Positions 1,021 through 7,979 of a stretch of DNA of 7,979 nt are shown piece by piece. The stretch comes from a virus (lineage: Duplodnaviria > Heunggongvirae > Uroviricota > Caudoviricetes). Under the pieces are notes generated by a model. That model ran no database searches. It was not told where the DNA came from and saw only the letters and a program-made list of their open reading frames with translations. Both the position numbers and the translations under genes were made by a program. Numbering within the stretch: position 1 is the first letter of the stretch; each line of letters begins with the position of its first letter. The stretch is taken from IMG/VR virus record IMGVR_UViG_2740892230_000037; one strand, given 5' to 3'.

Positions 1021-1330
1021 TGTTCAGCGCCTCAAAATCGGGTTCAGCAGAAACCAGTTCAGATGTTTTTGGCATCGTTGTCAGACCGTGTGGAATATCC
1101 CTGCGGAGAACTATGGGTTCGTTTTTAGGGCCGATTACAAATGGGATGCCGTGCAGTCTTAACTNNNNNNNNNNTCCGTGTGGAATATCCCTGCGTAGAA
1201 CTATTGGTTCGTTTTTAGGACCGATTACAAATGGGATGCCGTGCAGTCTTAACTGGTGTTGCTGTTTTGTGTATCGCTCGTATTTCGTGATCTCTTTAAT
1301 CTCTGCTGGAGATAGAGTTAATTCGTACAT
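998..1330 (-). CDS. xis: Excisionase-like small protein; the true product is probably about 80 aa because the ORF crosses gap 1165-1174 and contains a duplicated block
   Basis: ATG at 1328-1330 (MYELTLSPAEIK...) and a lysine-rich C-terminus (NNGKTKKK) that overlaps the int start by 23 nt. Position, size and overlap match lambda-type xis. The 26-aa block LRLHGIPFVIGPKNEPIVLRRDIPHG is encoded twice, on either side of the N run. Confidence 0.55.
   Translation of the reverse strand: MYELTLSPAEIKEITKYERYTKQQHQLRLHGIPFVIGPKNEPIVLRRDIPHGXXXXLRLHGIPFVIGPKNEPIVLRRDIPHGLTTMPKTSELVSAEPDFEALNNGKTKKK
1081..1258. repeat. Two copies of an 84-bp xis segment separated by N10 (1165-1174)
   Basis: 1081-1164 and 1175-1258 align base for base with 3 substitutions, all synonymous in the minus-strand xis frame (ctc/cta, ccc/cca, ggc/ggt). 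Confidence 0.9.
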
Positions 1331-1397
1331 GTGGTCACGTGCCTTTACAGCATGACCGCCGCCACTATAGCTGGTGGGCGGCGATATGGGTTGAACA

Positions 1398-1570
1398 TTA
1401 AAAATCAGCCTGACTCGGGATCAGTTTTTGCCAGATAGCTGAAACGTATTTTGCCTGATAACGGGCGTCATCAAGTGCATTATGGCGCTCACCTTCGAAT
1501 GGGATAGCAGTTCTGGCATCGAAGTCTATGGCTTTCCCCAGCTCAACGATTGTGCGTACATCGCGATCGT
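1398..1570 (-). CDS. DEDDh 3'-5' exonuclease, C-terminal fragment with stop (allele 1)
   Basis: Minus-frame translation DRDVRTIVELGKAIDFDARTAIPFEGERHNALDDARYQAKYVSAIWQKLIPSQADF ending at the stop at 1398-1400. Contains the Exo III motif H-x-A-x-x-D-A (HNALDDA). Truncated upstream by gap 1571-1580. Confidence 0.7.
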
Positions 1571-1580
1571 NNNNNNNNNN

Positions 1581-1843
1581 GCAGTTTTTGCCAGATGGCT
1601 GAAACGTATTTCGCCTGGTAACGTGCATCGTTCAGAGCGTTATGGCGTTCACCTTCGAATGGAATAGTCGTTCTTGCGTCGAAATCCATCACCAGTCCCA
1701 GAGCAACCATCGTTCTTACATCGCGATCATTGGTGTAACGCCACGGGCAGGGGATCCCCTGCCGTTCATATGAACGGCGTAAAATCACGTTGTCGAAAGT
1801 TGCACCGTCACCCCAGACCTGAACAAAAAATTCACCGGAGTTT
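1581..1843 (-). CDS. DEDDh 3'-5' exonuclease, internal to C-terminal fragment (allele 2)
   Basis: In-frame translation NSGEFFVQVWGDGATFDNVILRRSYERQGIPCPWRYTNDRDVRTMVALGLVMDFDARTTIPFEGERHNALNDARYQAKYVSAIWQKL. Carries an Exo II-like FD motif (GATFDNVIL) and Exo III (HNALNDA). Bounded by N runs on both sides. Confidence 0.7.
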
Positions 1844-1853
1844 NNNNNNNNNN

Positions 1854-2192
1854 CTGCGCTTCACGTGATTGCTTCAGCCACCATTTAATGACGTCACGAT
1901 CAATGACTCCGCCAGCAGTATCCAGATCGATGGTCTTGCTAAATTCTGGTCCCATATCTCCGGTTTGCGGATCGAAAAATATTGCGCCTATTGAGATAAT
2001 CGGGGCATCGGGATTTTTTCCCATGGTTTCAAGGTCGATCATCAGATGAATCCCCGCTCTGCTGGTGGATGTGAGCTTATGATGACCATTCACCTTAATT
2101 AAGGGATCTGTCGCCTCGCCAGTTTTATTATCGCTGGCGTGATGCTGATTGCCGCCAGGGTTCTCCTTGTGTGGATGTTCAGCGCCTTCCAT
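1854..2192 (-). CDS. DEDDh 3'-5' exonuclease, N-terminal fragment with His-rich leader (allele A)
   Basis: ATG at 2190-2192; [21 protein letters not shown]...NGHHKLTSTSRAGIHLMIDLETMGKNPDAPIISIGAIFFDPQTGDMGPEFSKTIDLDTAGGVIDRDVIKWWLKQSREAQ. Exo I motif D-x-E (MIDLETMG). Truncated downstream by gap 1844-1853. Confidence 0.7.
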
Positions 2193-2203
2193 TNNNNNNN
2201 NNN

Positions 2204-2527
2204 TTGCGCTTCGCGTGATTGCTTAAGCCACCATTTAATGGTGTCCCGATCAATGACTCCGCCAGCAGTTTCCAGATCGATAGTCTTACTAAATTCCGGT
2301 CCCATATCTCCGGTTTGCGGATCGAAAAATATTGCGCCTATTGAGATAATCGGGGCATCGGGATTTTTTCCCATGGTTTCAAGGTCGATCATCAGATGAA
2401 TCCCCGCTCTGCTGGTGGATGTGAGATTATGATGACCGTTCGCCTTAATTAAGGGATCTGACGCCTCGCCAGTTTCACTATCGCTGGCATGATGCTGATT
2501 GCCGCCAGTGTTCTCCTTGTGCTGATG
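2204..2527 (-). CDS. DEDDh exonuclease N-terminal fragment (allele B, about 95 percent nucleotide identity to 1854-2192)
   Basis: Same frame and motifs (…[99 protein letters not shown]). Bounded by N runs. Confidence 0.65.
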
Positions 2528-2537
2528 NNNNNNNNNN

Positions 2538-2732
2538 GATCGGGGCATCAGGATTTTTTCCCATGGTTTCAAGGTCGATCATTAGATGGTTACACGTCCT
2601 GCTGGTGGATGTGATTTCTTGATGACCGTTCACCTTAATTGAGTGATCTGCCGTCTCGCCAGTTTCATTATCGCTATCGTGATGCTGATTGCCGCCAGTG
2701 TTCTCCTTGTGTGGATGTTCAGCGCCTTCCAT
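2538..2732 (-). CDS. DEDDh exonuclease N-terminal fragment (allele C)
   Basis: ATG at 2730-2732; [65 protein letters not shown]. The 33 nt preceding gap 2734-2743 are identical to the 33 nt preceding gap 2194-2203. Confidence 0.6.
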
Positions 2733-2744
2733 TNNNNNNNNNNC

Positions 2745-2885
2745 ACACGTCCTGCTGGTGGATGTGATAACGTGATGACCGTTCACCGTAATTAAGGGAT
2801 CTGCCGTCTCGCCAGTTTCACTATCGCTGGCGTGATCCTGAGCGCTACCAGCATTCTCCTTGTGTGGATGTTCAGCGCCTTCCAT
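2745..2885 (-). CDS. DEDDh exonuclease N-terminal leader fragment (allele D)
   Basis: ATG at 2883-2885; [47 protein letters not shown]. It is in the same frame as, and 57 nt downstream of, the amber stop of the zinc-ribbon ORF at 2940-2942. Confidence 0.6.
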
Positions 2886-2939
2886 TTCCTTCGGATCATC
2901 TTCCTGAACTTCAACCTGATACTCTTCATCGAATGTTTC

Positions 2940-3085
2940 CTAGTATGTTGCGTCGCCCATCACCGCGCCACAATCAGGGCAGTTGCCGCCGCCGGTCTGA
3001 CCGCAGGCGGTGCAGACTTTTTCCACTTCCTGTTGCGCCACTGGTTCAGGCTGTTTCGTTTCTGGCTCGTTTTGTAACGCATTTG
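2940..3085 (-). CDS. C-terminal end of zinc-ribbon protein (Q/E/P linker plus CxxC-x9-CxxC), ending in TAG
   Basis: In-frame translation ...[47 protein letters not shown] then the TAG stop at 2940-2942. 5' side truncated by gap 3086-3095. Confidence 0.65.
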
Positions 3086-3095
3086 NNNNNNNNNN

Positions 3096-3284
3096 CCATC
3101 GAATATTTCCTGGTATGTTGCGTCACCCATCACCGCACCACAATCAGGGCAGTTGCCGCCACCGCTCTGACCGCAGGCGGTGCAGATCTTTTCCGGTTCC
3201 TGTTGCACTACTGGTTCAGGTTGTTTCGTTTCTGGCTCGTTTTGTTGCGTATTTGGGCTGTTTTGTTCCGCTTTCTGGTCGTTC
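3096..3284 (-). CDS. Zinc-ribbon module, allele with CAG (Gln) in place of the amber stop, reading through toward the exonuclease leader
   Basis: [63 protein letters not shown], with no stop before gap 3086-3095. The CAG codon at 3110-3112 aligns to the TAG at 2940-2942. Confidence 0.6.
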
Positions 3285-3294
3285 NNNNNNNNNN

Positions 3295-3450
3295 AGTTCC
3301 GTTCCGATTCATGCTGGTTCTGGTTTACAGAATCGCGGGTCTGGATCCCCTTAACCCATTTCGGATCATTCGGGTCGCTAATCCCTGCAACAAATTCTCC
3401 GCGAGAGGCAGCAAGCAACTTATCGGCGTCAGGCTGGCTGATATTGGCTG
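3295..3450 (-). CDS. Shared module fragment ([51 protein letters not shown])
   Basis: In-frame minus-strand translation. The same module, with substitutions, sits at the C-terminal end of the 4609-6133 ORF and in 3461-3712. Confidence 0.6.
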
Positions 3451-3460
3451 NNNNNNNNNN

Positions 3461-4405
3461 TCAACAAATTCACCACGTGATACTGCAAGCAGTTCATCGG
3501 CGTCAGGCTGGCTGATATTGGCTGCCTGCATAATTTTCTTTACTTCGTCAGCGGTAACTTTTACCGGTTCTGGTTGTTCAGAATTTTGTGCGGTATTTGC
3601 ATTTTGCGGTAAGCCTGTGTATGTGCCATTTTTTCGGGCAAAATATTCTTCTTTTGTGATTTCAGTAGCCCCGGCAGCCAGCGCCTTATCCAGACCAGAA
3701 AGTTTGTTTGCGNNNNNNNNNNACGTGCGAAGTATTCCTCTTTTGTGATTTCCGTAGCTCCCAGGGCCAGTGCTTTTTCCAGACCAGAAAATTTGTTTGC
3801 GCGACCGTATTTTTCGCCATCCTTGTCGGTGAAGAGGAAGTAGAACGGCCCCTCACGCTCTACAGATGGTTCGACTTCCACTTTGCATTCGGTTTTTTCG
3901 TTGTCCGGAATTGCCGTTTCCACTGCATCAGTTTCTGGTACTGNNNNNNNNNNAGCTTCCGGCGCGGTTTCATTTTTTGGGATATCAGATACCTCAGTTT
4001 CCACTGCATCAGTTTGTGTTTCTGATGACTGGAGAACATCAACAGTGCCCAGGTCTGTTTCTTCATTCTCAAACACGCCCTTTGTCGTCAGGTATTCGCA
4101 GATATATTTGTTCAGTGCTACGGGATCTTTGTGAATGTNNNNNNNNNNTGACGGGAGAGTACCAGCTGTGCCCTGATTTGTTCCTTCGTCATCTTCAAAC
4201 ACGCCCTTGGTAGTCAGGTATTCAGTGATGTATTTGTTCAGTGCTACGGGATCTTTGTGAATGTCGATCGGACGCTCACGGACAAGGCCAAAAATAGTCT
4301 GACGGTCGTAGCGAACGGCATCGGGTTGTTTGCGCATTGATGCGGAAATGCGCTTCCAGTCTTCGCGATCTTTGTCGATAACTTCATTTTTTGCCCAGCG
4401 ATGGA
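3461..4405 (-). CDS. Four gap-separated fragments (3461-3712, 3723-3943, 3954-4138, 4149-4405) of one or more paralogues with a different N-terminal domain joined to the same shared module
   Basis: Translations: (4149-4405) ...HRWAKNEVIDKDREDWKRISASMRKQPDAVRYDRQTIFGLVRERPIDIHKDPVALNKYITEYLTTKGVFEDDEG...; (3954-4138) IHKDPVALNKYICEYLTTKGVFENEETDLG...; (3723-3943) ...VEREGPFYFLFTDKDGEKYGRANKFSGLEKALALGATEITKEEYFAR; (3461-3712) [83 protein letters not shown]. Adjacent fragments overlap as divergent alleles. Confidence 0.55.
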
Positions 4406-4415
4406 NNNNNNNNNN

Positions 4416-4598
4416 CTTTTTCCGGTTCCTGTTGCGCTACTGGCTCAGGTTGTTTCGTTTCTGGCTCGTTTTGTAACGCATTTGGGCTGTTTTGTTCCGC
4501 TTTCTGGCTGTTTTGTTCCGCTTTCTGGCCGTTCTGTTCCGTTTCTTGCTGGTTCTGATTCACTGAATCGCGGGTTTCAATCCCCTTCACCCATTTCG
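4416..4598 (-). CDS. Linker fragment of the shared module, containing a 21-bp tandem repeat
   Basis: [60 protein letters not shown], bounded by gaps on both sides. Confidence 0.55.
4464..4548. repeat. 21-bp tandem repeat (unit gctgttttgttccgctttctg, 2 perfect plus 2 degenerate copies) encoding QKAEQNS heptads
   Basis: Perfect units at 4486-4506 and 4507-4527, degenerate units on either side. Further copies of the unit lie at 3256-3276 and near 3061-3085, next to gaps. Confidence 0.85.
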
Positions 4599-4608
4599 NN
4601 NNNNNNNN

Positions 4609-6133
4609 CGTTCCGTTCCGATTCATGCTGGTTCTGGTTCACAGAATCGCGAGTCTGGATCCCCTTGACCCATTTCGGATCATTAGGGTCGCTAATCCCC
4701 TCAACAAATTCACCACGCGATACAGCAAGTAACTTATCGGCGTCAGGCTGGCTGATATTGGCTGCCTGCATAATTTTGTTTACTTCGTCAGCGGTGACTT
4801 TTACTTGGTTAGCGGAACTCACTTGCGACTGAGCATCCAGCGACTGCGCGTTCTGGCCATGTTCAGTTGTATCCGGTTCCATTGTTTCAGTTGTTGCCTG
4901 TTCACCTGCCATTGCGTCAGATGGTTGTGGTTTTTCTTCTTCTGTTTCACGCTCAGTAACCACCTCGCGGTTAATTTCTTCCAGGATATCTTTTTCCGGC
5001 GTATGCCGGGCAGCTGTGAGAGTTTCCTTGCTGGGGTTCTCGTGATCAGTTTCCGTCAAATAGGCGTTGATATACCCCTGAAGGCGTCCCGGGTAGTGAT
5101 AAAATTCAGGGTGTGCGCTTCGGATAAGTGCAAAAATAGCGGCGCGGGAATAGTCCAGAATACCCGGGGTTGCACGAAGTGCTGCGGACCATTCTTTGAA
5201 CGGACTTTCTTTGTTCAGGACTACTTCTTTTGCGCGACGATAAACGCTGCCCGGAATTTCATAAATATTAAAATCCATCGGAAGTGTGGCTGCTGCAATC
5301 TCCACATCCAGTGTGTCGAGGGTGTGTACTAAATTCGGATTGCGATCGGTTTTGTTCCCACCGCCAGCATTAGCACCGGAAGCCGTGCGGGTGATGCGTG
5401 AAACACGATTTCCTTTCATCCACTCTTTTGTCAGCAGACCCCGATCAGTGTAGTCAGTGTCCAGGTATGCTTCGAAAAAAGCAGTTATTAGTCCCAGGTC
5501 TGAATTACCAGGATTAGGGAAAACTTTGTCAGTGTCACGAACCAGTTTGTGGAGGTCGCGAATCTCCAGCGAGTCGAGCAGACTGGTTTTATGCGAAATA
5601 GCCAGGGCAGTAACAGCCGGTAGTTCTTCAGCCCGTGCAATGTGTAATGCCTGGAGTTCGTCGCGTGAAACGTGCGTTACTGATTTTTCGCTGCCGTGTT
5701 GAGCAAGCCAACGAATGGGCAGTTCCTGACCGGAGACAGGCAGAAGCATGCTCTCCTCAATCTCAGTCATGTCTTCGCCGTTGATGTTGGTATTGTCAGT
5801 GCTGGCTGGTTTGTCCTGAACAGAGGGGGAAGGGCCGATAAATGTCATTGTGATGCCATCTTTCCCGCCTTTTTCATAGCGGTTGCAGAATTCAGTATCA
5901 AACACGCCTTCTGGCGGAAGGTCGTCAACAACGGGCAAATTGACGCGGACGGGTTTTTTAAAGTCGTCTTCATCATAATCGTTGTCATCCATTGCGGTAA
6001 TGCAGCGGGAGATTGCAACAGATAATTTTTTTGCTGTAGTCCAGTAAAAACCACCTTTAATTCCTAGGCGTTTTCTTACTTTGTCATTTTTTGCTTCGCA
6101 ATATAGTGCAAATTCTTCTTTATCAGTGCTCAT
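4609..6133 (-). CDS. Large early-left protein, N-terminal 508 aa (5' complete, 3' cut by gap 4599-4608); tentatively RecE-N-terminal-like, possibly an intact counterpart of Qin-prophage ydfE
   Basis: ATG at 6131-6133 with a GAGG about 10 nt upstream; long protein-like ORF with an acidic TE-rich region. It ends in ...[56 protein letters not shown], the module that elsewhere continues into linker and zinc ribbon. The resemblance of its central region to the RecE N-terminal half is from memory only. Confidence 0.8.
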
Positions 6134-6226
6134 TATTGGTAAACCTCATCACAGATTTAAGGGTGAACAAATCTCTGCCATTGCTGACATATAAGAATGA
6201 AACTGGATATTTATTACGGTGCTGTT

Positions 6227-6418
6227 TTAAAATCCTGCCGGGATTTCGTTATTATCCTGGTGAATAACTTTATCGACCGGGTAACAGTTACCGGGAATTT
6301 TCTGTTCGGTTGCTGCAGTCACACACTCCTGCATTGTCCTGTGAACACTGACTGCAATATCAACTGGCTCTCCGGAAACAAGAAAAACTGTCAGAACAAG
6401 TGCAAATGCTGTATTCAT
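6227..6418 (-). CDS. ydfD: YdfD-like small lysis protein with a hydrophobic N-terminus (63 aa)
   Basis: ATG at 6416-6418 overlaps the dicB stop as ATGA; MNTAFALVLTVFLVSGEPVDIAVSVHRTMQECVTAATEQKIPGNCYPVDKVIHQDNNEIPAGF. It sits immediately downstream of dicB, as in the Qin prophage of E. coli K-12. Confidence 0.7.
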   Translation of the reverse strand: MNTAFALVLTVFLVSGEPVDIAVSVHRTMQECVTAATEQKIPGNCYPVDKVIHQDNNEIPAGF

Positions 6419-6569
6419 TGCCAGCATCCTTTTTGTATCGGACGTAAACGGGCCAGCATTGAAAGAATGCATATTTTATTTAATAGCTCCCGTTCGTGTT
6501 TTCTCTTGTTAATGGCATCTTCAGTAAATACAGGGTTACTGATAGTGACACCAATTTCAAAACAACCTT
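6415..6569 (-). CDS. dicB: dicB allele 1, C-terminal fragment (5' cut by gap 6570-6579)
   Basis: ...GCFEIGVTISNPVFTEDAINKRKHERELLNKICILSMLARLRPIQKGCWQ with stop at 6415-6417. About 90 percent nucleotide identity to 6606-6760. Confidence 0.7.
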
Positions 6570-6605
6570 NNNNNNNNNNCGTCAGAATAAGTGCAAATAC
6601 TGGAT

Positions 6606-6794
6606 TCATTGTGCACATCCTTTTGGCATCAGACGTAAACGGGCCAGCATTGAAACAATGCATACTTTATTTAATAACTCCCGTTCGTGTTTTCTTTTGT
6701 TAATGGCATCTTCAGTAAATACAGGATTACTGATAGTGACACCAATTTCAAAACAACCTTCAGACGTATTAACGTTTGGTAATAACGTTTCCAT
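6606..6794 (-). CDS. dicB: DicB cell-division inhibitor (complete, 62 aa)
   Basis: ATG at 6792-6794 with GAGGA 7 nt upstream; METLLPNVNTSEGCFEIGVTISNPVFTEDAINKRKHERELLNKVCIVSMLARLRLMPKGCAQ. The stop overlaps the ATG of a second ydfD allele (6580-6609, cut by the gap). DicF lies 180 nt upstream on the same strand. Confidence 0.8.
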   Translation of the reverse strand: METLLPNVNTSEGCFEIGVTISNPVFTEDAINKRKHERELLNKVCIVSMLARLRLMPKGCAQ

Positions 6795-6812
6795 TATCGC
6801 GTCCTCAACAAT

Positions 6813-6964
6813 GAATTTTGTGATGCGGTGCCTGGTGCCTCCAGGTGACGTTAACCAGTTAACAATTAACGCCGGATACAGAGCATTCCCGTTACGCCCG
6901 TAAAAGACCGCTTGTTTTAACTGTTCCGCGTGCGCTTAGCCGCATTCACCGCATCACAAAATTC
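6813..6964 (-). promoter_or_regulatory. Perfect 18-bp inverted repeat (6813-6830 and 6947-6964) bracketing the dicF-dicB spacer; candidate long-range RNA duplex and RNase III site
   Basis: Plus 6813-6830 gaattttgtgatgcggtg is the exact reverse complement of plus 6947-6964 caccgcatcacaaaattc. One arm is just 3' of the DicF terminator, the other about 20 nt upstream of the dicB start. Confidence 0.5.
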
Positions 6965-6969
6965 ACTTT

Positions 6970-7012
6970 AAAAAGGGCGGCAGAGCAGTCACGGAGTAAA
7001 ACTGATACCGCC
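6970..7012 (-). terminator. Intrinsic terminator forming the DicF 3' end
   Basis: GC-rich stem (GGCGGUA...UGCCGCC) followed by five U on the minus-strand transcript (A run at plus 6970-6974). Confidence 0.65.
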
Positions 7013-7027
7013 AAACGTCACCAGAAA
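6975..7027 (-). ncRNA. dicF: DicF small RNA (ftsZ-targeting sRNA of the dicB operon)
   Basis: Reverse complement of 6975-7027 reads TTTCTGGTGACGTTTGGCGGTATCAGTTTTACTCCGTGACTGCTCTGCCGCCC followed by TTTTT, which matches the 53-nt DicF sequence as I recall it, and it lies directly upstream of dicB. Confidence 0.8.
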
Positions 7028-7360
7028 ATTGATAACAGAGGGCGTTGCAGCGGGGTTGTCACTTAAGCGTATGGTCAACCTGACAACCCGGTGTCCTCAA
7101 CGGGGAAGGAATAACCCCGCCATACTTACCGCCGCGCCATTTCGCGGATTGCCACAACCGGAAGCGCACGGTCGACGAAAATTTAACGACAGGCTATCTA
7201 TGAACCAGCTACCTCGCCGTGCGCTTTCGCTTTATGCCCTAACTTTTCAGGGACATATCCTTTCAGTAAACTGTCAGTGCCGGATGTTCACCCGTGTCCG
7301 GCGCACGCACTCCACTTCACCCGTGGAGAACTCCTTAATTACCAACCCTCAGGAGGGTGA

Positions 7361-7594
7361 ATGTTAAAATCAACTCTTATTGCTAAATGCCTTTATCAAA
7401 ATCGCATGGTAAGCAGCATTTCAATAGGCGAGTCTGCAGTTAAAAGTATTTTCGAAGAGTACTTTCCCGGGCATGATTTTAATAAATGGAATACCAAATT
7501 ACCGCCAGCAGTTTCAACGCGTATTCTGAAAGCAACCGAAAGAGCAAGTACAATTCGCGTTAACTATTTCATTAAAGATTTGTGGGATCTTTGA
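7361..7594 (+). CDS. Hypothetical 77-aa protein (AT-rich island, unknown family)
   Basis: ATG at 7361 preceded by AGGAGG at 7351-7356; protein-like composition (MLKSTLIAKCLYQNRMVSSISIGESAVKSIFEEYFPGHDFNKWNTKLPPAVSTRILKATERASTIRVNYFIKDLWDL). Base composition turns visibly AT-rich at about 7357. The 3' end overlaps the convergent 135-aa gene by 23 nt. Confidence 0.55.
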   Translation: MLKSTLIAKCLYQNRMVSSISIGESAVKSIFEEYFPGHDFNKWNTKLPPAVSTRILKATERASTIRVNYFIKDLWDL

Positions 7595-7979
7595 TATCCA
7601 CAGAGCCTAAAGTATGTGCATATGGATGTGCTATTATGCGCCCTCGCAGATTTGCATCATTTTCTAAATTCACTGAACGAAACAGGGCATCAACAAGGCT
7701 CTGTACAATGCAAAGGCAATCGAAGACTGTCGCCGTTTCTGTTTTGATTGATGAAAGAACATGGCCATTCACGCAAACAGAAATTACCCGTTTATTAACA
7801 TCGCTTTCCTGCTTTTGATTATCAGAACCATATAGCCCAGAAAAAGCATTGCGCACATTACGAACCATATTATCGATGGTTTCTTTTTCTGCGGTACTAA
7901 GGTCAAGAGTAGCCAGTTGTGAACGAACTATATTCGATGCCATTTCCTGTAATGGCGTTGGTAAATCTTTAAATTCCAT
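7572..7979 (-). CDS. Hypothetical 135-aa protein (AT-rich island, unknown family); start codon is the last three bases of the window
   Basis: ATG at 7977-7979, TAA at 7572-7574; balanced, soluble-looking composition (MEFKDLPTPLQEMASNIVRSQLATLDLSTAEKETIDNMVRNVRNAFSGLYGSDNQ...). The plus-strand ORF antisense to it (7582-7818) is R/S/C-rich and junk-like. Upstream signals are outside the window. Confidence 0.6.
   Translation of the reverse strand: MEFKDLPTPLQEMASNIVRSQLATLDLSTAEKETIDNMVRNVRNAFSGLYGSDNQKQESDVNKRVISVCVNGHVLSSIKTETATVFDCLCIVQSLVDALFRSVNLENDANLRGRIIAHPYAHTLGSVDIKDPTNL

Follow-up and report, generated by a model that had tools for sequence, protein, structure and literature searches.

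A conserved, structured spacer upstream of the small RNA gene dicF in a Caudoviricetes sequence, probably the untranslated DicF precursor leader of a prophage dicBF operon

The sequence considered here, hereafter the window, is a stretch of 7,979 nucleotides (nt) from a virus of the class Caudoviricetes (IMG/VR record IMGVR_UViG_2740892230_000037), and the element in question is the region at positions 7028-7350, directly upstream of the gene for the small RNA (sRNA) DicF. DicF itself, made up of a seed and an intrinsic terminator hairpin, occupies 6975-7027 on the minus strand: the Rfam family RF00039 matches 6975-7026 (-) with 76.7 bits, in agreement with the original prediction, which had placed DicF at the 3' side of the region, and the 5' end of the 53-nt dicF annotated in Escherichia coli K-12 aligns with position 7027. 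Further along the same strand lies dicB at 6606-6794, 95% identical to its K-12 counterpart (tblastn match with K-12 DicB at 6609-6794). When 6900-7450 was scanned against Rfam, DicF was the single match and nothing within 7028-7350 matched at E<=10, and since the sole RF00039 match falls outside it, the region is the leader and not DicF. The roughly 320 nt upstream of DicF are GC-rich, as had been noticed, with 53.9% GC compared with 39-42% in the flanks.

In a three-way alignment, window positions 7028-7347 (minus strand) are about 97% identical to the ydfC-dicF intergenic spacer of K-12. The gap between the end of ydfC and dicF in K-12 MG1655 measures 340 nt and aligns base for base with window positions 7347-7028, homology beginning 21 nt past the ydfC stop codon; the order spacer, dicF, dicB is identical in the two, with the spacer directly 5' of dicF on the same strand. 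Positions 6975-7979 are 99.3% identical to prophages of O26, O145 and O103 strains. In O26 strain 11368, a DicA-like repressor (a helix-turn-helix gene) is followed by a hypothetical gene, ydfC, a gene of 135 amino acids (aa), a convergent 77-aa gene, the spacer, dicF and dicB, and the counterpart of this ydfC would lie just past the window end (7979). The 135-aa gene (-) and the 77-aa gene (+) are inserted between ydfC and the spacer in O26 and are absent from K-12. The original prediction held that the region stands where K-12 carries ydfA, ydfB and ydfC. Its observation that no such genes are present was borne out, as tblastn with K-12 YdfA, YdfB and YdfC found nothing in 7000-7400 or in the whole window, but K-12 has the same spacer at this place, and, with ydfC upstream in O26 together with the two extra genes, the difference from K-12 is a two-gene insertion and not a spacer replacing ydfABC. 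The apparent loss of ydfABC was an artefact of a mistaken K-12 gene order, and its correction is one outcome of this analysis. The E. coli-type DicF leader was also encountered, at 93-98% identity, in metagenome-assembled genomes labelled Veillonella parvula (L010), Collinsella sp. (L012) and Proteobacteria (L011), which probably contain mis-binned E. coli prophage contigs.

Judging by these alignments, the region is probably a transcribed but untranslated spacer within a Qin-type dicBF (pL-like) operon of a prophage, and on the minus strand it would serve as the 5' precursor leader of DicF. As such it is a feature already described, namely the known DicF precursor leader, and the "structured leader" that the original prediction had offered as one option was right in substance, the spacer being non-coding, structured and presumably transcribed on the dicF strand.

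Set beside 245 related loci, drawn from E. coli genomes, phages, plasmids and IMG/VR, the spacer proved to be modular. From its upstream end it comprises M1 (7277-7347), a pair of GC-rich hairpins; a joining segment (7227-7276, -; CACUGACAGUUUACUGAAAGGAUAU...CCCUGAAAAGU...), conserved in K-12, O26 and loci of about 80% identity; M2 (7162-7226, -), a long hairpin; M3 (7044-7158, -), a domain that spans about 115 nt and is built of four helices plus a pseudoknot; and a linker (7028-7043, -). Only loci confirmed by blastn were used; a loose scan of viral contigs for a two-loop pattern was discarded, having returned mostly chance matches from unrelated environments.

The processing of the homologous K-12 transcript has been studied in detail. 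DicF is processed from a polycistronic transcript initiated at dicBp, the dicBF RNA (Ragunathan et al. 2023, confirming Faubladier et al. 1990). RNase III cuts between +813 and +814, about 137 nt before the start of DicF, and so generates the 5' end of a 190-nt species; primer extension placed that 5' end at the RNase III cut, the species was lost in an rnc mutant, and the 53-nt DicF was RNase E-dependent (Ragunathan et al. 2023). The main text of two global RNase III mapping papers merely cites Faubladier 1990. The K-12 promoter hexamers (TTGACC, 17 nt, TAATCT) give a start site near position 1938 of the K-12 locus (L002), which brings the RNase III cut to about L002:2751, equivalent to approximately 7158-7165 (-) in the window. 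The K-12 cut would accordingly be located at the 3' base of the M2 stem, with a mapping good to about 5 nt, and a cut at that point makes the 190-nt species exactly M3 plus DicF.

M2 has features that fit such a role. It is marked by a 16-nt inverted repeat (7156-7171/7217-7232), overlooked in the original prediction. Its lower part is an invariant 10 base pair (bp) stem, AAGCGCACGG/CCGUGCGCUU, followed by a bulged A and an extension of 3-6 bp. The tip (7176-7213) is hypervariable and has been swapped for unrelated sequence, giving variants that differ in length (77-84 nt), and the stem is nevertheless formed in all 27 of the 27 distinct variants. M2 is a probable RNase III substrate. On the other side of M3, between its closing helix and the DicF 5' end, the linker CGCCCUCUGUUAUCAAU is identical to that of K-12, is AU-rich at its 3' end and is the putative zone of RNase E cleavage.

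The steps of DicF production in this element can be proposed by homology with K-12. Transcription would start from a DicA-repressed promoter far upstream, outside the window. RNase III would then cut M2 at its 3' base (about 7158-7165), as shown in K-12 and placed here by alignment, parting the upstream mRNA from an RNA of about 190 nt that consists of M3 and DicF and that, as in K-12, would accumulate in this form. M3 is expected to fold compactly, leaving only the short AU-rich linker single-stranded before the DicF terminator hairpin, and RNase E, on which DicF depends in K-12, would free the 53-nt sRNA by a cut at the 5' end of DicF. We suggest that M3 delimits the RNase E site and stabilises the 190-nt intermediate. 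M1 would be a separate module, most likely the stable 3' end of the upstream fragment, the 5' untranslated region (UTR) of the 77-aa gene, or both.

The original prediction also allowed for an undescribed noncoding RNA. As an independently transcribed sRNA gene, with its own minus-strand promoter inside the spacer, this is very improbable. The region is strongly conserved, structured and without an Rfam family, and an older study cited in Ragunathan et al. (2023) suggested an additional dicB operon promoter; against this, the K-12 homologue is a processed part of the dicBF RNA, its 190-nt species having its 5' end at the RNase III cut and disappearing in the rnc mutant, Ragunathan et al. (2023) found no internal promoter in the K-12 spacer and concluded that there is none, and a promoter scan of the minus strand over 6800-7979 returned no promoter-like site.

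The fold of M3 was derived from the window sequence itself and then assessed by covariation in 81 distinct homologues. All its elements lie on the minus strand. Helix P1 (7151-7158/7044-7051) closes the domain, and within it are P2 (7143-7147/7132-7136), P3 (7115-7119/7101-7105) and P4 (7081-7089/7053-7061), the last a 9-bp stem also missed by the first reading. The pseudoknot pairs GUAUGG with CCAUAC in the P4 loop (7120-7125/7069-7074) and can be extended by 7128-7130/7066-7068. Standard pairs are found in 94.7% of cells, compared with 32-61% when the partners are slid; 11 pairs are changed on both sides (2/500 shuffles), with 50 such cells (0/500), and a set of 35 sequences gave the same picture. 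In the pseudoknot, a U-A pair becomes C-G in the phage P1 group, with U-G intermediates present, and P4 shows a U-A to C-G exchange in ten sequences. RNAalifold, which cannot draw pseudoknots, independently picked P2, P3 and the pseudoknot helix, the last lengthened to 9 bp. The fold is specific to the dicF strand: because helix P1 contains tandem U-G/G-U pairs in the window, it is paired in 93% of cells on that strand and in 74.5% on the opposite one. A tRNA-like cloverleaf was considered and set aside, ARAGORN finding 0 tRNA or transfer-messenger RNA genes in 6900-7450. Overall the evidence from the 81 homologues is supportive of the modelled fold rather than decisive. The best-supported elements of the region, the RNase III stem and this pseudoknotted domain beside DicF, had both escaped the original prediction.

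Conservation as RNA also bears on whether the region encodes one or more small proteins, a reading that can hardly be sustained. The statement that the minus strand has no open reading frame (ORF) longer than about 10 codons holds for ATG starts and fails for GTG or TTG starts, with which ORFs of 36 aa (7059-7169), 29 aa (6989-7078) and 23 aa (7274-7345) appear; none of these frames is conserved. In favour of coding, residues 1-25 of the 36-aa GTG ORF match phrog_8854 (function unknown) with E=6e-13, and some phage records carry hypothetical proteins annotated over the stretch. Its frame is intact in just 32/81 homologues, while 42/81 have indels, mostly of +1 or +4; it overlaps the helices that covary as RNA; and no Shine-Dalgarno-like sequence was seen upstream of the GTG at 7169. 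PHROG 8854 is probably a cluster of spurious calls on conserved DNA that encodes RNA. On the plus strand, the 112-aa ORF at 7029-7367 was rightly dismissed as spurious by the original prediction, as it has a TTG start, matches no PHROG and spans the hypervariable M2 tip with its variable length. The coding readings of the region were discarded for want of a conserved frame.

M3 is not confined to dicBF operons. It has no Rfam match at E<=10. Copies of 77-82% identity lie in the leader of the ban operon in phages P1 and P7 and also in P1-like plasmids, where a label given by the annotators of phage P1, "dicF-like region" (NC_005856), covers part of it. Phages cdtI and 2H10 carry M3 some 280 nt past their apparent pL promoter, and it is present in Salmonella phage F1055 as well. 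In all 90 of the 90 distinct copies with enough flank, a hairpin and U-run follow 26-83 nt downstream, and the sRNA bodies so placed belong to at least ten unrelated types, DicF being one. In loci of the phiSTEC1589-Stx1c type M3 is missing, and a different terminator sRNA comes straight after M1 and M2. Alternative bodies in the DicF position include those at L144 710-775 (cdtI), L015 2700-2765 and L003 2600-2645 (phage P1), with others in L139, L140, L151, L162, L168, L175 and L214. They have unrelated seed regions, and a terminator of GGCGG...CCGCC U-run design recurs in many of those from lambdoid elements. Scans at Rfam gathering thresholds of L015, L003 (phage P1), L139 and L140 yielded only the tRNAs of phage P1, and, DicF alone being in Rfam, the other bodies may be unnamed phage sRNAs. 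A preprint on Pas sRNAs was judged not relevant here, as it concerns sRNAs of late regions.

The M3 fold and its tie to interchangeable phage sRNAs are the only new element of this report. We put forward tentatively, and at somewhat less than even odds, that M3 is an undescribed autonomous structured-RNA module, which lambdoid prophages and P1-like phages place before interchangeable terminator-type sRNAs and which plays an active part. If so, it could programme how RNase III and RNase E mature the RNA and how stable the 190-nt form is, or else could set the balance between termination, which yields the sRNA, and read-through into early genes downstream, and it would merit an RNA family of its own.

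A rival reading, in which M3 is a cis-acting transcription control element, either a put-like processive antiterminator or a riboswitch-like attenuator deciding between a stop at the sRNA terminator and read-through to dicB and the early genes, is improbable. In its favour, M3 is always placed ahead of an intrinsic terminator, through which genes have to be expressed in three settings: the dicBF operon, the pL leader of cdtI/2H10 (cdtI having no annotated N gene) and the ban leader of phage P1, where M3 lies some 35 nt from the estimated start site. The fold also goes beyond what a nuclease site would call for. In addition, GGCGGUA in the M3 junction (7128-7134, -) duplicates the 5' arm of the DicF terminator (7006-7012, -), and the minimum-energy fold of the 195-nt precursor pairs GGCGCGGCGGUAAGUAUGGCGGGG of M3 with the 3' arm of the terminator, an arrangement that would break up the terminator and M3 alike. 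This competing pairing is, however, not conserved in P1-type copies, and a riboswitch-like competition between M3 and the terminator was for that reason demoted to a minor rival. Moreover, M3 has no sequence similarity to the HK022 genome (no blastn match at word size 7) and an architecture unlike the two-stem put RNA, no K-12 transcript reaching past dicF was detected (Ragunathan et al. 2023), and antitermination in the cdtI leader could be due to a separate putL-like motif near pL. Homology with HK022 put was ruled out on sequence and architecture, although a survey of put-like RNAs (King 2011) may still list related leaders. The cdtI motif lies just past a pL-like promoter (L144, about 355-400) and reads ACGGCG...CAUGCGUCG, resembling HK022 putL (ACGGCGCGUCU...CAUGCGUCGGG), which for comparison was placed at about 28312 (-) (L005, about 28312-28240); judging by this resemblance, it may be a put-like antiterminator upstream of M3. 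In the window, GUCCCUGAAAAGUUAGGGC (about 7236-7254, -) is boxB-like, but with an 8-nt loop in place of a GAAAA-type pentaloop and with a 3' arm that is absent in K-12 and O26 (TCAGAC). Reading the CCCUGAAAAG hairpin as a lambda boxB/nut site was ruled out, the hairpin not being conserved in K-12 or O26.

M1 (7277-7347), the least conserved module, holds the hairpin and the repeat that the original prediction had singled out. That hairpin, GCCGGA and TCCGGC around a 12-nt loop at 7279-7302 (hairpin 2), is indeed present, though a 6-bp hairpin alone is unremarkable; a companion, CTCCAC/GTGGAG at 7310-7328 (hairpin 1), had been overlooked. The direct repeat TTCACCCGTG is also real, with coordinates one base off from those first given (actual positions 7287-7296 and 7316-7325), and by itself it is within chance, 22/200 shuffles of the window giving >=2 matches. 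In 41 distinct copies the stems are nearly invariant and the loops, which hold the repeat, are variable. Both loops carry TTCACCC(GTG), and GGGTGAA at 7355-7361 (+), spanning the gap between ribosome-binding site (RBS) and ATG of the 77-aa gene, is the reverse complement of TTCACCC in each of them (7287-7293 and 7316-7322), which turns the two-copy repeat into a three-copy motif, two direct and one inverted. Homology ends sharply on either side of M1, marking recombination boundaries; hairpin 2 alone is present in intergenic gaps of the Stx phages P13374, TL-2011c and phi191, and about 600 nt are inserted directly after it in L110, L060 and L122. The M1 5' edge (7334-7348; GGGUUGGUAAUUAAG, -) also forms a 15-nt, 80% complementary long-range inverted repeat with the 3' strand and loop of P4 in M3 (7053-7067). 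The edge resembles the P4 5' strand and may offer an alternative pairing, unless the match is due to chance.

The 77-aa gene itself (7361-7594, +, in a slot spanning 7348-7594) has a strong RBS, AGGAGG, at 7351-7356 and belongs to phrog_10348 (function unknown). Across homologous loci the junction ...CAT|TTCACCCTCCTGAGGGTTGG and the RBS stay the same, as does M1, ahead of at least seven different opposite-strand coding sequences or N-termini (slot examined at L015 about 2300-2482, L016 2267-2488, L053, L054, L066 and L092), and the slot looks like a swappable, lysogen-expressed cassette inside a pL-type operon. Its convergent neighbour, the 135-aa gene (7572-7979, -; phrog_1363, function unknown), overlaps it by 23 nt, has its start codon at the last base of the window and gave a weak, sub-threshold Ros/MucR match (E=0.088); nothing significant was found for either gene in Pfam or PADLOC.

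The arrangement at the slot raises the possibility, compatible with the precursor-leader reading, that about 7244-7360 on the plus strand are the promoter and 5' UTR of the 77-aa gene. The joining segment contains a promoter-like pair on that strand, TTTTCA (7244-7249) and TAAACT (7267-7272) separated by 17 nt, which would give a weak sigma-70 start near 7279. The mRNA would then begin with hairpin 2, followed by hairpin 1, and the loop sequence UUCACCC would pair with GGGUGAA at the RBS and start codon. Both the promoter and the pairing are rather unlikely on balance. They agree with the constancy of M1, junction and RBS before unrelated genes, with the coincidence of the M1 3' boundary and the putative start site (several loci diverge right after hairpin 2), with hexamers that are unchanged in L015, of about 80% identity, while the sequence between them varies, and with the complementarity of GGGTGAA to both loops. 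They are weakened by a hexamer score of 8/12, below the scan threshold and hence not called, by the retention of M1 without an opposite-strand gene in the commonest (K-12-type) loci, by Stx-phage copies of hairpin 2 that adjoin no such gene start, by a single G-U variant in hairpin 2 (L165) that favours the minus strand, and by the absence of covariation between loops and RBS. An operator role for the plus-strand gene, likewise raised by the original prediction, is conceivable for the 7277-7360 part only.

Several points weigh against the precursor-leader reading. The promoter lies outside the window, and the two extra genes between ydfC and the spacer, one of them convergent, could affect read-through. 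The RNase III site is placed by alignment and a 190-nt gel estimate only, and the lower M2 stem, being invariant, shows no covariation and reaches a mere 13-16 bp with a bulge. M1, again with invariant stems, does not covary either, and could act on either strand. For M3, RNAalifold missed P1 and P4, which are pseudoknotted with the helix it picked, and the homologues are mostly close relatives, with covariation stemming from few lineages (P1/P7-type, cdtI-type, F1055-type and L150).

Elsewhere in the window, positions 1165-6579 contain 15 runs of N10 with near-duplicate segments on either side, including repeated exonuclease-like fragments, and an additional, incomplete copy of dicB (6418-6567, 88% to K-12 DicB) stands beside the full one (6415-6663 vs 6606-6794). 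The window looks like masked or concatenated variant segments and not like one natural contiguous sequence.

The analysis adds a structural model for the non-DicF part of the 190-nt precursor, locates the RNase III cut, known from experiments in K-12, to the base of a stem that is conserved, and finds the same fold ahead of ten or more sRNA bodies in lambdoid prophages and in the ban leader of phage P1. Should M3 control maturation or read-through of the terminator, this would account for the way in which prophages set their output of DicF and DicB, both toxic division inhibitors, and the domain would offer a simple signature for finding new phage sRNAs.

Among known systems, the K-12 ydfC-dicF spacer of the Qin cryptic prophage (Faubladier et al. 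1990, Balasubramanian et al. 2016, Ragunathan et al. 2023) is the direct counterpart: it has the same RNase III stem arms and does not differ in the linker or at the DicF 5' end. The two differ in what precedes the spacer, directly ydfC in K-12 and, in the window, the 135-aa gene on the same strand with the convergent 77-aa gene, and in a few window substitutions which form a small extra hairpin near 7234-7256 that K-12 does not have. The ban leader of phages P1 and P7 shares the M3 domain, with compensatory changes in P3, P4 and the pseudoknot, and an intrinsic terminator hairpin follows it; there, however, M3 is close to the estimated start of the primary transcript, whereas in the window it is found mid-operon, M1, M2 and a recognisable P1 closing helix are absent, and the downstream hairpin is unrelated to DicF, scoring below the Rfam DicF threshold.

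HK022 putL and putR resemble M3 in being structured RNA in the early (pL-type) operon of a lambdoid element with no N gene nearby, and in cdtI-type phages and phage P1 M3 also sits, like put RNAs, in a promoter-proximal leader upstream of a terminator. The put RNA, a cis-acting antiterminator that works through the zinc-binding domain of the RNA polymerase beta-prime subunit, is, though, about 70 nt long with two stem-loops, stem I having a triplex (PMC9378689), compared with about 115 nt, four helices and a pseudoknot in M3, which in the window is far from any promoter. A likeness in biogenesis is offered by sRNAs matured from polycistronic or longer transcripts by RNase III, RNase E or both (PMC9438474; PMC8687705), which, as in the case of DicF, share an operon internal terminator and acquire their 5' end by endonuclease cleavage. 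What sets the present locus apart from these is the large conserved fold between the RNase III and RNase E sites, common to sRNAs with unrelated bodies.

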